A DNA stretch of 64,000 bases from Nitrospirota bacterium (GTDB lineage Bacteria > Nitrospirota > Thermodesulfovibrionia > Thermodesulfovibrionales > Dissulfurispiraceae): contig JBFLWF010000003.1 of assembly GCA_040758355.1 (NCBI GenBank), forward strand, positions 32,001 to 96,000, in the 5' to 3' direction. The translations under genes and the position numbers were made by a program. Under the pieces are notes generated by a model. The model did not search any database. It was not told the origin of the DNA and saw only the letters and a program-made list of their open reading frames with translations. Position 1 is the stretch's first letter, and each line of letters opens with the position of its first letter. This document shows positions 15,005 to 43,603 of the stretch, piece by piece.

Positions 15005-15030
15005 AAGTTTCCTGCCTGCTTAGGTTATAC

Positions 15031-15231
15031 TGTGACCCAGCGATAAGGATAAGTCTCTTTCGTTCAGAAGCTCTGTTTTGACAGTTCTAATGCTCCTTGC
15101 ACTACAGCCGCAAAACTCACCCTTCGGGCTCAAACAGTTGCGGCTGTTTAACGCTCCAGTCGCAAAGAACTGTTACCAAAACATCGCTATTCACTTCAGA
15201 GACCCATCCTTATCGCTGGATTTGGGTTATA
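15031..15231. repeat. ~200-bp rod-like imperfect palindrome upstream of uvrA
   Basis: Nested arms CCAGCGATAAGGAT/ATCCTTATCGCTGG, GTCTCT/AGAGAC, TGTTTTG/CAAAACA, ACAGTTCT/AGAACTGT, ACAGCCGCAA/TTGCGGCTGT, with apical CC-TTCG-GG. Confidence 0.85.
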
Positions 15232-17784: not shown

Positions 17785-18870
17785 ATGGGCAATAGGCAAA
17801 AGACAAAAGACAAAAAAAATAATATTTTTGGAACAGGGATAAATGGTTATTCAGTTATTTCACATCGCCTATTGCCTATCGCCTATTGCCTTTTGTTTAT
17901 CTTATCTTCCTGCAGCCCTACTCAAGAAAAGCTCTACAAAGAGACCCGCACTTCTATGTACACTATTGTCTCGATTACGGTATCTTCAGACTCCGAAGAA
18001 AAGGCAAAAACAGCAATTGACAGGGCATTTAACGAACTGGACAGGCTTGCAAGGCTTTTAAATTTTTATTCTGAAGACAGCGAAGTATCCATGATTAATA
18101 GAAACGCTGGCGACAAACCTGTAAAGGTATCTCCAGAGACATTGGAGATAATAGATAAGGCGCTTTATGTATCGGAAAATACGGAAGGCGCATTTGATAT
18201 TACAGTCGGCCATGTAGTACGTCTGTGGGACTTCCAAAATAAGGTGCTGCCTGATGAAAAATTAATTAAAGAAAAACTTAAACTCGTGGGATACAGGAAT
18301 GTAATTGTGGATAAGGAAAAATCCAAGGTCTTTCTCAAAACAAAAGGAGTGCAGATAGACTTAGGCGGCATTATAAAAGGCTATGCAGCGGACAAGGCAG
18401 TAGAGGTGCTTAGAAAGAACAGGATAAAATCAGGCATTGTGGCTATTGCAGGAGATATAAAGGTGTTTGGGAAAAGACCGCCGACAGGATCGGATAACGG
18501 GCTGTGGAATGTTGGAATACAAAACCCGAGACAGAAAAGCGACAAGGATGAAATCATTGCTGCCATCGGTCTTTCGGATATGGCAATATCCACATCAGGT
18601 GATTACCAGAGATTTTTTATAAAGGATGGGAAAAGGTATCATCATCTTCTCAATCCAAGGACAGGCTATCCTGCTTATGGCTGCCAGAGCGTAACAATAA
18701 TAACAAAGGATGCTGCATTTACAGATGCCTTTGCCACAGGCATATTTATCCTCGGCCATCAAAAGGGAATGGATGTCTTAAAGAGGCTCGGCTTTGATGG
18801 AGTTATTGTGGATAAAGATGGTAAAATTCTTGTCACAGAAGGGATAAAAGATAAAATAAAATGGACCTAA
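17785..18870 (+). CDS. apbE: FAD:protein FMN transferase (ApbE) lipoprotein
   Basis: Lipobox LSSC, GAFDITVG, DLGGIIKGYAAD, STSGDYQRF, YHHLLNPRTGYP. Start uncertain (repeat-derived N-terminus). Confidence 0.92.
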   Translation: MGNRQKTKDKKNNIFGTGINGYSVISHRLLPIAYCLLFILSSCSPTQEKLYKETRTSMYTIVSITVSSDSEEKAKTAIDRAFNELDRLARLLNFYSEDSEVSMINRNAGDKPVKVSPETLEIIDKALYVSENTEGAFDITVGHVVRLWDFQNKVLPDEKLIKEKLKLVGYRNVIVDKEKSKVFLKTKGVQIDLGGIIKGYAADKAVEVLRKNRIKSGIVAIAGDIKVFGKRPPTGSDNGLWNVGIQNPRQKSDKDEIIAAIGLSDMAISTSGDYQRFFIKDGKRYHHLLNPRTGYPAYGCQSVTIITKDAAFTDAFATGIFILGHQKGMDVLKRLGFDGVIVDKDGKILVTEGIKDKIKWT

Positions 18871-19078
18871 GTTGAGCGATTTTATATATGTCAGGCACTG
18901 CTCAAAGACTTTAAAAAGTGTTGGTTTAAGTGTATATGAGAGATAATAAATGCATCATCAAGCAAGCATCCAATGTAGTAGATGACGGATGCAAGATAAA
19001 TGGTTTTTACAAGTGCGTGGTTTAAAGTCTTTTCGCAGCACCTGACATATATTTTAGATTAGAATAGCCCAATTTAGG
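18866..19078. repeat. Structured palindromic element family, copy A
   Basis: ATATATGTCAGG/CCTGACATATAT, AAAGACTTTAAA/TTTAAAGTCTTT, core GCATCC-AATGTAGTAGATGAC-GGATGC. Homologous to 29949-30165 and 36901-37108. Confidence 0.9.
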
Positions 19079-19094
19079 ATGGAGTGTTGGAGTA

Positions 19095-22229: not shown

Positions 22230-22290
22230 ATCTAAAGGGTTAGGTAAGTTCGGATCCATATATGGATAATTATATCATCTTTTTCTGTCT

Positions 22291-22377
22291 TTAGTTATTA
22301 GTAATTGAGTAATTAAGTTATTAAGTTATTGAGTTAGTTTTATTCACTCATTCACTTATTTACTTATTTACTTATTT
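22291..22377. repeat. Octamer tandem arrays in roughly inverted arrangement
   Basis: (TTAAGTTA/TTGAGTAA)n followed by (TTTACTTA/TTCACTCA)n. Confidence 0.8.
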
Positions 22378-23629: not shown

Positions 23630-23709
23630 TTAGTTAGTAATTGAGTTATTAGTAATTAAGTTATTAAGTTATTGGGCTTTAAATTACTTATTTACTTATT
23701 TACTTATTT
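23630..23709. repeat. Octamer tandem arrays in roughly inverted arrangement
   Basis: Same units as 22291-22377 (AATTAAGTTATTAAGTTATT...TTACTTATTTACTTATTTACTTA), overlapping the ilvN stop. Confidence 0.8.
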
Positions 23710-26564: not shown

Positions 26565-26948
26565 TTAAATACTCTTTGCAATCAATTCTCCAATTTTTAA
26601 TGCAATAAATCCCGCAACAACACTGAAAATTACATTCATTGATGCAAGCAGCCATTCCCCGTCTTTCAGAAGGCTTCCAGTCTCATACTCAAAAGTAGAA
26701 AATGTTGTATACGCCCCAAGAAATCCAACTATCAAAAATAACCTCCACTGAGGGTTGACCATCAATTTTTCGGTAAACAAAGACATAAGAAGTCCGATGA
26801 AAAAACTCCCGCTTACATTAATAAAAAACGTGCCTAATGGAAAGCTCCTTCCCCATTTCTGGCCAATCCAGAGGCCAATGGCGTATCTGGCGATTGCACC
26901 GATAAAACCTCCAATGCCTATTATCAGATAGTTTATCATTGATTGCAT
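26565..26948 (-). CDS. crcB: Fluoride efflux channel CrcB/FluC
   Basis: GGFIGAIARY, FPLGTFFINVSGSF, GFLGAYTTFSTF. Confidence 0.96.
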   Translation of the reverse strand: MQSMINYLIIGIGGFIGAIARYAIGLWIGQKWGRSFPLGTFFINVSGSFFIGLLMSLFTEKLMVNPQWRLFLIVGFLGAYTTFSTFEYETGSLLKDGEWLLASMNVIFSVVAGFIALKIGELIAKSI

Positions 26949-26949
26949 T

Positions 26950-26994
26950 AAAAAACTCCTACCCTCTTAAATTTTTTAACCGAGAGTAGGAGTT
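26950..26994 (-). terminator. Riboswitch expression platform (terminator / anti-SD stem)
   Basis: AACTCCTACTCTC...GAGGGTAGGAGTT-TTTT. The 3' arm contains the crcB SD AGGAG. Confidence 0.8.
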
Positions 26995-27037
26995 ATCAGC
27001 TTCGGAACCGAAAGCGGTTATGGCGAACCCCATCGCC
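26986..27037 (-). ncRNA. Fluoride riboswitch (crcB motif)
   Basis: Minus strand GGCGATGGGGTTCGCCATAACCGC...GCTGATAACTCCTAC matches the fluoride aptamer consensus, directly upstream of crcB. Confidence 0.93.
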
Positions 27038-27082
27038 TTTTAAATTATTTAAAAAATAACATAATCATAAACAGTAAGGCAA

Positions 27083-29948: not shown

Positions 29949-30165
29949 CCATAATCCGTAACGTAATGATGAATGTCGAGCATGTTTCAAAAGCCTTTAC
30001 AAAGTGTTGGTCTTTAATTTATGCCAGAGATAATCTACGCATCGCTCAATAAGAGAGCAATGTAGTAGATGACGGGTTCAAGACAATGCAGTTGAAAACT
30101 AAAAGTGTAAAGTCTTTTTCAGCACACTCGACATCCATTTCGAGATGTTTGGCTACGGATTATGG
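29949..30165. repeat. Structured palindromic element family, copy B (divergent)
   Basis: CCATAATCCGTA/TACGGATTATGG, ATGTCGAG/CTCGACAT, AAAGCCTTTACA/TGTAAAGTCTTT, core CAATGTAGTAGATGACGG identical to copy A. Confidence 0.85.
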
Positions 30166-35590: not shown

Positions 35591-36888
35591 CTAAATTGCA
35601 TTGTACTCCTTCACATCGAGCCTTATCCTCTTTAAATCCTCGGAATTATGGCCCGAATAAAGATACGAAAATACAGAGTTGTTGGTAAGCAGCGGATCAA
35701 GGCCATCATCTATAATGCCCGTTTTTACAAGCTTATCCCACGCTGCTGTCCCTTTGATGGGCGAAAATTCGGTAAGGTTTATCCGTACTCCGAGGTTCTT
35801 TAAAAATTCAACTCCTTCCTTCACCTCTTCCAAATCCTGATCGGGCAATCCATACATGAGATAAACACCGATTTCCTCTTTTGTAAAACCCTGCTGTTTT
35901 AAATTCCTTATAGCCCTTTCTAAATCCTCATTGTTCACCTTGTCACCAGTTTGCTTCTGTCTGCTTAAATCCACAGTTTCAAGGCTCGGTCTTATGGTCT
36001 TGAAGTTAGCTTCCTTCATCAGCCTTGCGAGTTCTTCATCGATAAACCTTGCATGTAGGCCGTTAGGCGTGTGAAACCTGATATTCGGTTTGGAATCGAT
36101 AACGCCTTTAAGAATCGGTTTAATATGATTCCCGGCATCTACCAGAAGCGCATCGTCATAAAAGGCAAAATCACGAATACCCATATTACAAAGCTCCCAG
36201 ATTTCTCCTAAGACACTGTCAGGTGAGCGTCTCTGGTAGTTGTCGATCAAGAGTTTAGATGCACAGTATGTACAGTGGAAGGGGCATCCTGTCGCTGTTA
36301 AAAGAGGTGCAAATGGATATTCCTCGTAGAGTTTAAGTTTGTAATATTGAACAGGCCATCCTTTCTTTTTTAGTTTAAAACCGAATGTGTACAATGCAAA
36401 ATTGAGGCTGTCGTTTATATGCCCCTTATAAATAAAATCCGCGCCGGAATTCTTTGAGGCGTGTTCATGATAAATGGTTGCATATATCCCTCCGAGAACA
36501 ATGGGCACATCACCGGCTACATCCCTTATAATCTCTATTGCTTTTTGAACTCCCTGATACCAGTAGCTCATGATAGAGGTCATTATGACAATGTCAAAGG
36601 GCATAGACTCTTTTATTTTATCTGTAAATTCGTCAATGCTTATTCCATATCGCCTGTAAAAAAAGGCATGTCTTTCAGCAATTCAGGCTTTTCAATAACC
36701 TCGGCTTTAAATTTCCCTGAGCCATATTTTTTTATTGTGAAGGAATCCGTGCAGTCTATCAGTTTAATCTCCGCATCAAACTGGCTCAGATGTTCCGCAA
36801 CTTTAAGCAGCCCCAGCGGCCTTGACCACAGGTTATAGGCCGCAAAATCATATATCCATGGATTTACGAGAAGTATTTTAAGCTTCAT
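35591..36888 (-). pseudogene. B12-binding radical SAM protein interrupted at a T7 run (36658-36664)
   Basis: N-terminal ORF 36640-36888 (LLVNPWIYDFAAYNLWSRPLGL) and C-terminal ORF 35591-36604 (GCPFHCTYC). One extra T would join them as ..MPFFYRRYGISIDEF.. Confidence 0.8.
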
Positions 36889-36900
36889 AAATAATTGAAA

Positions 36901-37108
36901 CCTAACTTAATCGATTTTATATGTCAGGCACGGCTCAAAGACTTTAAAAAGTGTTTGTTCAAGTGTATTATAAAATTATAAGAGCATCACAACAATAAGT
37001 ATCCAATGTTGTAGAATACGGATACAAGATAAGTGTATTTGCAAGTGCGGGGTTTAAAGTCTTTTCGCCGCACCTGACATATATTCTTAACTTAAAATGG
37101 TGTAAGTT
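36901..37108. repeat. Structured palindromic element family, copy C
   Basis: TATATGTCAGG/CCTGACATATA, AAAGACTTTAAA/TTTAAAGTCTTT, GTATCC/GGATAC, outer AACTTA..ATTTT/AAAAT..TAAGTT. Confidence 0.9.
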
Positions 37109-37148
37109 TTTTCTTTAAAGGTTATATTAAGAATAACAGGTAGCAATC

Positions 37149-40116: not shown

Positions 40117-40127
40117 ATATCCTCCAA

Positions 40128-40210
40128 AAGTTAAGTCATTAAGTTATTGGGTAATTAAGTTAGTATAAGCAAAACACGGTAAATTAATAACTTAATTACT
40201 TAATAACTTA
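40128..40210. repeat. Octamer tandem arrays, inverted
   Basis: AAGTTAAGTCATTAAGTTATTGGGTAATTAAGTTAG...TAATAACTTAATTACTTAATAACTTA. Confidence 0.75.
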
Positions 40211-40481
40211 TTTTGAATCTTTTCTCGCGGGCAAAGTTTTTTATTACCATCAAGGCTGAATAAAGCCTCTGGAGTCTTATGTTCCTTTTCCTTATTAAAC
40301 AGATATCGTCATAAGGGAAAGGCTCTGACCTGATCTCGATCTGTTTGCGCTCTATGGCCCTGCAGAGGGTTTTAAGAGCATTTTCATCAAAGGGTTTCAA
40401 ATAAATGGGATTTACAGCAACAAACCCCTCTGATATATCCGAAACTATGGCCCTGAAATTCCTTTTAGTCTGCTCTGCCAT
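40200..40481 (-). CDS. Hypothetical protein
   Basis: 93-aa ORF co-oriented between tatC and ychF, with no recognisable motif. Confidence 0.6.
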   Translation of the reverse strand: MAEQTKRNFRAIVSDISEGFVAVNPIYLKPFDENALKTLCRAIERKQIEIRSEPFPYDDICLIRKRNIRLQRLYSALMVIKNFAREKRFKISY

Positions 40482-42469: not shown

Positions 42470-43603
42470 TTATTTCCCAAATGGGCATACAGGGTATCTG
42501 CATTCCTTGCAATTAAGGCAAAGTCCGCCATGTCCAAGTTCTGCAAGCTCATGTCTGCCGATTTTTTCTCCTGCAAGCACCCTCGGAAGGACTAAATCAA
42601 ATATGGTTGTCTTATGATACATGCCGCATGCAGGAATACCTAAAACAGGAATGGGTGAATGGGTGAATGGGTGAATGGGTGAAGTGGCTGTCGCACTAAT
42701 GTATGCCACCAGAAACATTGCACCGGGTAGTACTGCCGAGCCGTATGTGATGTCGGCAGCACCGAGCTTTCTAATGGCAAACCTCGTGACATCGTCAGGG
42801 TCGACAGACATGCCTCCTGTTGTAATAAGCAAATCTGCACCGGCGTCTATGAGCTCTCTGAGCCTTGCCTCTATGAATTCTTCATTATCAGGTGCATAGT
42901 ATATACCAACAATCTCTCCATCAAATGTCTCAATCTTCTTCCTGATTATAGGCGCAAATGCATCCTTTATCCTTCCATAATAAACCTCGTTGCCTGTGAT
43001 GACCACTCCGGCCTTCGGTTTTCTCAATTCTTTAACTTCGATTATTCCACCCTTACGATCTTCTGCACCTCCGTTCTTCCGCGCTTCTTCTCCAATTCCA
43101 ACAGCCTTCTGTGCTATTTCACGCTTCACTACCAGCGGAATTGCCCTTGTGCCTGCAACAATCTGTCCTTTTTTTACTACGGTATTATCGTGCAGTGTTG
43201 CGCACATTACATCACCGAGCATATTGAATTGAGTAAGGGAGTGTTTATTAATTTTCAAAAGCCCATCCCTATCAGCAATTATATTTATCTTGCCCTCCTT
43301 CGGTTCTCCTTCCATCTTCACGCCTTCACCCATTAAGGCATTGGCAAGTGCATATGCGGCGTCGTCTTCGTGCATCTCGTCATCTGCAATATTTAAAACA
43401 AACAGATTTTCTTTTCCGAGTCTCTGGAGATGGCTTATGTCTTCTTCCCTGACAATATGCCCTTTTTTGAATGCCCTGCCTTTAAAGTCATCCTGCTTTA
43501 TCTCGGTAATATCATGGGCCAGAACCATACCCACAGCATCTTCTACCGGGATTGTTTTAACGCCGATCCTATTCTTCGTATCCGAGCCCTGAATGTCACA
43601 CAT
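42470..43603 (-). CDS. Molybdopterin-binding (MoeA/MoCF-biosynth-like) protein
   Basis: AVGMVLAHDITEI, VITGNEV, TGGMSVDPDD, C-terminal HGGLCLNCKECRYPVCPFGK. Confidence 0.88.
   Translation of the reverse strand: MCDIQGSDTKNRIGVKTIPVEDAVGMVLAHDITEIKQDDFKGRAFKKGHIVREEDISHLQRLGKENLFVLNIADDEMHEDDAAYALANALMGEGVKMEGEPKEGKINIIADRDGLLKINKHSLTQFNMLGDVMCATLHDNTVVKKGQIVAGTRAIPLVVKREIAQKAVGIGEEARKNGGAEDRKGGIIEVKELRKPKAGVVITGNEVYYGRIKDAFAPIIRKKIETFDGEIVGIYYAPDNEEFIEARLRELIDAGADLLITTGGMSVDPDDVTRFAIRKLGAADITYGSAVLPGAMFLVAYISATATSPIHPFTHSPIPVLGIPACGMYHKTTIFDLVLPRVLAGEKIGRHELAELGHGGLCLNCKECRYPVCPFGK

Follow-up and report, generated by a model that had tools for sequence, protein, structure and literature searches.

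The structured element present in three copies in the window (the whole stretch of 64,000 nucleotides that was analysed, from the Nitrospirota genome called G000 here) is very probably a MITE mobilised in trans by IS1380 transposases, as its terminal sequences suggest. We consider it likely that this mobility, together with a filtering of copy orientation by host RNA processing, explains the element as a whole. Judged separately, the view that host filtering caused the orientation bias is the somewhat favoured one. In the proposed mechanism, an IS1380 transposase would bind the two termini and insert the element, often at the ends of genes, where the TAA of the element would take over as the stop codon. 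Sequence would then be exchanged between the fold-back arms of a copy, and between these and other copies, leading to concerted 'compensatory' change, core inversions and swaps of termini.

Copies in the Window

The three copies were located at 18866-19078 (A), 29949-30165 (B) and 36901 to about 37111 (C), in the same orientation, which confirmed an earlier sequence-only reading of this DNA; the right end of copy C is decayed and extends beyond the 37108 given there. When aligned with their flanks, the copies have a mean column identity of 75%. All of them fold far better than shuffled sequences. The z-scores of the RNA fold were -4.8 (A), -6.3 (B) and -5.1 (C) on the plus strand, and -8.4, -7.9 and -7.0, respectively, on the minus strand. 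The plus strand, on which the structure had been described, is therefore the weaker-folding one. The copies had also been called intergenic, which stands except for copy A: the stop codon (18868-18870) of the upstream apbE-like gene (ORF 17785-18870) falls within its left terminus. The features are as follows.

18861..18865, + strand: left target-site duplication of copy A, ATGGA; the empty sites of G001-G004 hold a single ATGGA or GTGGA
18866..18883, + strand: left terminal inverted repeat of copy A, type a, CCTAAGTTGAGCGATTTT; the apbE-like gene ends in its TAA
18884..18915, + strand: left inner arm of copy A, composed of a variable covarying stem, CA, a 4-bp stem, TC and an AAAG-N-CTTT box
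18916..19020, + strand: interior of copy A, type I, 105 nt, with a conserved CAATGTAGTAGATGACGGAT motif and G in excess of C, without family-wide structure
19021..19052, + strand: right inner arm of copy A, which pairs with 18884-18915
19053..19078, + strand: unpaired spacer and right terminal inverted repeat of copy A, type a, family consensus AGAATCGCTCAATTTAGG
19079..19083, + strand: right target-site duplication of copy A, ATGGA
29949..30165, + strand: copy B, with a type I core and type b termini CCATAATCCGTA
36901..37111, + strand: copy C, with a type a left terminus, a type I core and a decayed right terminus, between divergent genes

On the minus strand, the CA of the left inner arm of copy A forms a tandem G·U and the TC a tandem G·A. 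Copy B is antisense to both flanking genes, and its duplication, TAAAT, is shifted by one base on the left side. In G003, the site orthologous to copy C is occupied by a 71-bp remnant that belongs to another subfamily and points the other way. Next to copy C, a B12-binding radical SAM gene (35591-36888, minus strand) is broken into ORFs 36640-36888 and 35591-36604 by either a frameshift or an assembly error. Intergenic arrays of 8-nt tandem repeats were found in the window at 1270-1321, 22283-22377, 23634-23709, 40123-40213 and 42642-42693.

IS1380-Type Termini and the Candidate Mobiliser

The element is bounded by terminal repeats of 13-18 bp, which start with CC, end with GG and correspond to the ends of IS1380-family elements found in related genomes. 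Between them lies a core of two ~32-bp inner arms and a ~105-nt interior, for which at least three states (I, II and none) were observed. This single core occurs with four types of termini (a-d), each matching a different IS1380 subgroup. Type a is represented by the G004 transposase P0001, which scored 207.5 bits with NF033539 (cut-off 180); the last codons of its gene lie on G004:C68. The ends of its element, CCCAAGTTGAGCGATTTT on the left and AGAATCGCTCAATTTAGG on the right, are those seen as type a termini in copies A and C. The left terminal repeat of copy A is identical at 17 of 18 bases to the left end of the G004 IS1380-family element (L037:1497), and the right consensus is the right end of the G004 element (L080) and of its relatives. 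Relatives of P0001 at 57-86% identity retain the type a termini, two of them (L058 and L074) with exact 5-bp duplications. Type b termini match IS1380 remnants in G009 (L051) and G088 (L328). Type c corresponds, with 1 mismatch in 14, to the right end of L316, located beside a transposase fragment in G279 that shares 88% identity with the L035 enzyme of G003. Type d, seen in G003, corresponds to the L043 element of G004. These termini, on an element without a transposase gene, support mobilisation in trans, which the sequence-only reading had put forward.

A search of G000 (93 contigs, 99% complete) with PF13701 and NF033539 found no IS1380 transposase. Nor was the enzyme found in the draft assemblies of G001 and G002; it is present in G003 and G004. 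Mobility in G000 is therefore either past or dependent on an unassembled element. No autonomous element with the inner arms or with either interior was detected in 22 loci, in further loci or in a profile test. In the latter, the untranslated ends of the type a subgroup (15 left, 15 right) were turned into profiles, which gave no consistent match to 47 copies (best score of 7.7 bits, in one copy; shuffles up to 4.2); for other IS1380 loci, the search used profiles of the element itself. Two candidate origins of the interior found no support in this test: homology to IS1380 untranslated ends, based on a shared ATCACCCAA[T/C]AAGT-like word, and deletion from a parent IS.

The available text of PMC12116815 describes 4-5-bp duplications and CC...GG termini of ~14 bp for the IS1380 family (ISEcp1/ISEc9, ISPme1), with ISEc9/ISEcp1 ending in ...AATCTAGG. 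The element shares these features and differs in having no transposase gene and in being unlike the IS untranslated ends beyond the terminal 13-18 bp. According to the accessible part of PMC9330008, the transposition pathway of the family is not known and its enzymes accept imperfect ends. At L304 (G074:C2:53000-58400), a truncated copy of the element lies directly outside the terminus of a tandem pair of IS1380 transposase genes.

Empty Sites and Target Duplication

The mobile element proposed in the sequence-only reading was borne out by the empty orthologous sites that it had advised looking for and by a 5-bp target duplication. At the apbE-yacG junction, copy A is absent in all four congeners (G001-G004), and the empty sites contain a single ATGGA (GTGGA in G003), where the window has ATGGA on both sides of the copy. 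The duplication was assayed for 48 of the 103 copies, those with ends matching the consensus at 11 or more positions, in 72 combinations of length and offset. An exact 5-bp duplication was present in 9 of the 48 copies (mean of 0.93 and maximum of 4 in 300 shuffles), and one with at most one mismatch in 23 (shuffles: mean 5.27, maximum 12). The signals at 3, 4 and 6 bp are in the same register as that at 5 bp, and none was seen at 7-9 bp. The duplicated target is AT-rich. The weak points of this evidence are that only 9 copies are exact and that copy B is offset by one base.

Comparison of G000 sites with the complete genome of G003 matched both flanks for 53 of the 91 copies, and these sites were empty in 18 cases, filled in 6 and of other length in 29. 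For the G000 copies at C16:40748, C26:29719, C18:2599, C28:13357, C17:37468, C12:18658 and C1:233662, relatives have a different form of the element at the orthologous site, namely long versus short, another subfamily, or the opposite orientation. The presence of different subfamilies at one site suggests hotspots or replacement; several comparison loci were chosen for holding a copy, and these data therefore give no rate of site reuse. The comparison also revealed that the interior can be replaced or lost at a fixed site. Insertions into the element itself were seen as well. Palindromes of 25-60 bp are inserted in the interior or arm of copies at L020:10887-11127, L037:2260-2290, L301 and L303, and in G000 C68:4568-4767 and C54:10824-10962 apparently represent one copy split by an insertion with an 8-bp duplication, whose transposase tail we take to be ISL3-like.

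Family Size and Spread

A profile built from the three window copies gave about 60 strong matches in G000. The final catalogue holds 91 elements (58 of type I, 15 of type II and 18 arms-only), in keeping with the earlier expectation of a very abundant family. The length is ~211 bp for types I and II and ~97 bp for the arms-only short form; type II has the same arms and an unrelated interior of ~105 nt. The element thus has many dispersed copies and no transposase gene, as is characteristic of a MITE. A covariance model, with at most 35 candidates scored per genome, detected the family in 21 of 68 genomes and 14 of 24 genera of the taxonomic family. An order-wide sample of 121 genomes contained the element in 13, of which 5 lie beyond the taxonomic family. 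Distant copies retain the arms and carry further interiors.

No known RNA family had been recognised in the copies, and the Rfam scans, run with gathering as well as E-value thresholds, agree. In the window, the scan reported nothing on the three copies and a single match elsewhere, a fluoride riboswitch (RF01734, 58.6 bits, 26980-27046, minus strand) upstream of a crcB-like ORF (26565-26948). Six copies of types I and II gave only two chance miRNA matches (E of 1.6 and 2.2). The element had no blastn match in the phage and plasmid collections, and the interior motif had none in the scanned viral contigs. A motif scan of metagenomes listed 30 stretches. The inspected matches are the same element, save L126, a chance match in coding DNA, and L127, which is cut by a contig end; no transposase of the type a IS1380 subgroup was present within 2 kb in these stretches.

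The Hairpin and Its Strand Asymmetry

Pairing was measured on the minus strand in a sequence-only alignment of 47 copies. The parts of the long stem had 95.6% (outer part) and 93.6% of their cells paired, compared with 30-47% for slid partners used as a control, and 14 of the 16 outer pairs showed double changes. The inner hairpin GCATCC/GGATGC, formerly listed as shared by the copies, reached 73.8% and is unformed in copy B. The other exchanges noticed in the window are real: CTGC/GCAG versus CGGC/GCCG (columns 51-208), GTCAGG/CCTGAC versus GTCGAG/CTCGAC (columns 45-214/46-213) and TTTAAA versus TTTACA/TGTAAA (columns 68-191). On a tree built from the interior only, 43 double changes that keep a pair fell on the same branch, versus 4.3 (maximum 12) with permuted partners. 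The covariation therefore holds in the larger alignment and under a tree-based control. The conclusion drawn from it earlier, that the structure is under selection, was too quick, since arm-to-arm exchange also yields covariation and is seen here: conversion of an arm through a mismatch was observed at C22:28759 and C2:75972. In G003, some copies have the core inverted relative to the type d ends.

The CA/CA and TC/TC positions are conserved, as had been noted, and what had been described there as internal loops turns out on the opposite strand to be tandem G·U and tandem G·A. At the former (columns 48-211 and 49-210), all 47 copies are paired on the minus strand, as UG/UA/CG and GU/GC/AU. At the latter, larger variants (3x3 loop) retain G and A at both ends, and in one subfamily (C27, C74) the tandem GA has moved three pairs outward. 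Among 107 distinct arm pairs, the mismatch states common to at least four copies, which are non-independent events, form G·U or G·A in 18 cases on the minus strand and in 0 on the plus strand; for rare states the counts are 19 and 25. Single changes mapped on the tree, read on the minus strand, were G·U in 8 cases and A·C in 2 on internal branches, and 20 and 13 on the tips, which makes the contrast between shared and private states weaker by this method. The arms are stabler on the minus strand in 100 of 107 copies under both RNA and DNA parameters, so that sequence alone cannot separate RNA from single-stranded DNA.

One alternative, possible though improbable in our judgement, makes the minus-strand hairpin a working part of transposition. 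Single-stranded DNA, or an arm of an extruded cruciform, would join the termini into one duplex, to be recognised by the IS1380 transposase or by a host factor. Selection for mobility would maintain G·T and tandem G·A pairing, and the bias in orientation would show which strand has to be exposed at insertion. This would accommodate the pathway described as not known in the available text of PMC9330008, the spreading mismatches that all pair on the minus strand when rare ones do not, the purines kept in the 3x3 loops and three pairs outward in C27 and C74, the asymmetry under DNA parameters, and the smaller replication-linked part of the orientation bias. However, autonomous IS1380 elements with the same termini have neither the arms nor a structured 3' region (z of -1.7 to +1.2), and the enzyme therefore does not need the hairpin. 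When copy A is folded whole as DNA, its two strands also have nearly equal energies (-30.3 versus -29.6). Moreover, DDE transposases act on duplex ends.

A slightly less probable alternative is that the pairing is not selected. Template switching would copy arm onto arm, and the fixed mismatches would belong to putative duplex protein sites, TC-AAAGNCTTT and GA-AAAGNCTTT. Conversion through mismatches and core inversions were indeed observed, the palindromic AAAG-N-CTTT box hardly varies even as the stem beside it turns over, and the boxes keep a steady distance (117-123 bp for 98 of the 108 type I copies and 116-119 bp for 14 of the 16 of type II). In addition, 47 double changes are confined to 25 branches, as expected from the copying of tracts. 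Conversion is strand-neutral, however, and predicts neither the 18 to 0 ratio of shared mismatches nor the pairing of all copies at the CA/CA columns through several combinations of bases; variants of the box (CAAG) still keep a purine-purine closure on the minus strand. Helical phasing of the two boxes was considered separately and rejected as unsupported: the modal spacings of 119 and 117 bp do not both fall on a multiple of 10.5.

Tandem G·U and sheared G·A pairs are typical RNA motifs. Together with minus-strand RNA z-scores of -7 to -8.4 and the conserved motif in the interior, they would fit a structured ncRNA made from the minus strand and either kept for a host function or mobile via an RNA intermediate. 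We regard this reading as very unlikely. Presence or absence of copies is polymorphic among congeners, which also speaks against the structured host ncRNA family suggested at first; the termini and the 5-bp duplication are of DDE type; no sigma-70 promoter- or terminator-like site was found inside copy A on either strand; and the interior, in which we found no conserved fold, is replaceable or lost at fixed sites.

In G003, many cores have no adjacent termini, and one site (G003:C1 260831-261276) has three cores in tandem with a period of ~190 bp. At G003:C1 352766-352963, a core without adjacent IS1380 termini is flanked by a 26-bp direct repeat. Arrays of 7-8 nt, similar to the 8-nt arrays of the window, surround many of the end-less G003 cores (22 regions read). 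Cut-and-paste by the termini alone does not explain these end-less and tandem cores. It is conceivable, although we give it a low probability, that the core is a unit of its own, a hairpin specific to one strand that relies on its G·U/G·T and sheared G·A pairs in order to spread. Such a core would change mobiliser by exchanging its short 'address' ends, drawn from four or more IS1380 subgroups, would exchange interiors, and would already have started to spread end-less among short tandem repeats in G003. It would then present a DDE transposase family with a substrate that folds as a single strand, and would be a natural probe for the way in which IS1380/ISEcp1 enzymes engage DNA.

Orientation Relative to Genes

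Between co-directional genes, taken from mechanical ORF calls, the plus strand of the element is the sense strand in 80 cases versus 11 in G000 and G003 together (58 of 68 for G000, 22 of 23 for G003). The counts are 47 versus 2 in leading-strand operons and 27 versus 8 in lagging-strand operons (Fisher p 0.014), with the leading strand of G000 inferred from third-position skew, a method that was right in 273 of 300 cases on G003. Replication strand was thus rejected as the whole cause, since on lagging-strand operons, too, the bias goes with the genes; the contribution of replication is smaller.

The interior has G in excess of C on the plus strand in 115 of 116 copies and is therefore C-rich on the minus strand. 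The minus-strand RNA is predicted to form an almost unbroken ~30-bp helix around this C-rich loop, and both RNase III and Rho are encoded in G000. Under host filtering, the minus strand in operon mRNA would offer the helix as an RNase III-type substrate and the untranslated loop as a Rho-type loading site. Copies placing that strand in operon mRNA would mostly be purged, and mirror-image selection would keep the plus-strand RNA interrupted. Host filtering explains the orientation and not the conserved identities of the tandem G·A and G·U mismatches, and the mirror-image reading does not account for this fixed identity either.

A second, unrelated MITE family was noticed in the same genomes. 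It is a ~197-bp fold-back with ends ATCCAGCGATAAG, has a copy at 15030-15226 of the window, just upstream of uvrA, and gave about 21 matches in G000 and one in G003. The termini of this family correspond to a further IS1380 subgroup (L317, L318 and L324), and its weaker-folding strand is sense in 9 cases versus 2.

Comparison with Known Systems

Hairpin MITEs are well known as a class. The element has every feature of this class that could be tested; it is not a new RNA class, and the class itself is ordinary. Like the bacterial MITEs Correia/NEMIS, ERIC, RUP and MITEPye1, it is geneless, 100-200+ bp long, ends in inverted repeats, duplicates its target and forms a long fold-back co-transcribed with its neighbours, and orientation matters for ERIC too. 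Unlike them, it has IS1380-type termini with a 5-bp duplication rather than TA, one core common to four transposase subgroups, and strand-specific arm mismatches conserved across subfamilies. In the available text of the respective reports, ERIC shows orientation-dependent RNA cleavage (RNase E) and Correia/NEMIS is an RNase III target (PMC2229807, PMC3049150), and MITEPye1 is tied to IS1182 through its termini (PMC11578231). The bcr1 element of the Bacillus cereus group, as described in the accessible part of PMC3184786, is ~155 bp long and shares 5-bp direct repeats, strain-variable positions and compensatory changes that keep the fold; it differs, in a comparison by description, in being cruciform-like with two stem-loops and in having no transposase named there. 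In behaviour, bcr1, ERIC and Correia elements are the closest. No account of this family, or of an IS1380-dependent MITE combining these properties, turned up in the open-access literature.

The IS1380 family spreads resistance genes in other bacteria. One core on the termini of four of its subgroups provides natural 200-bp substrates for a family whose pathway is given as not known in the available text of PMC9330008. The ~90 copies, mostly inside the operons of a compact genome, follow a strong sense-orientation rule that is echoed in the second MITE family, and this rule is a testable case of host RNA processing shaping the persistence of a parasite. The element also calls for caution in RNA-motif discovery: its strong covariation belongs to a mobile element, comes partly from arm-to-arm exchange and favours the strand absent from mRNA.

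The strand-asymmetric imperfect hairpin is shared with REPINs, moved by a REP-associated tyrosine transposase (RAYT), and with attC sites, recombined by an integron integrase. Kinship with either, as the sequence-only reading had considered, is extremely unlikely. The ends of some copies resemble RYYYAAC, and G000 encodes a RAYT-like Y1 protein (C10:9258-9584, L032), which scored below the NF047646 cut-off. The consensus ends, CCTAA[A/G]TT and [T/C]TTAGG, contain however no RYYYAAC...GTTRRRY cores and no AAC/GTT core, the ends of the arms carry no GTAG-type tetranucleotide, and the RAYT gene is not flanked by REP arms of that type. The copies lie among housekeeping genes and not in same-direction cassette arrays, and they have a target duplication, which attC sites lack. 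Their IS1380-type terminal inverted repeats and 5-bp duplication point to a DDE transposase, not to an HUH enzyme or a tyrosine recombinase. A link to the RAYT-like gene was rejected, because the intact gene has no copy within its 3.3-kb locus. A broken RAYT-like Y1 transposase was found at C21:13013-13318 of G000, about 900 bp from a copy.
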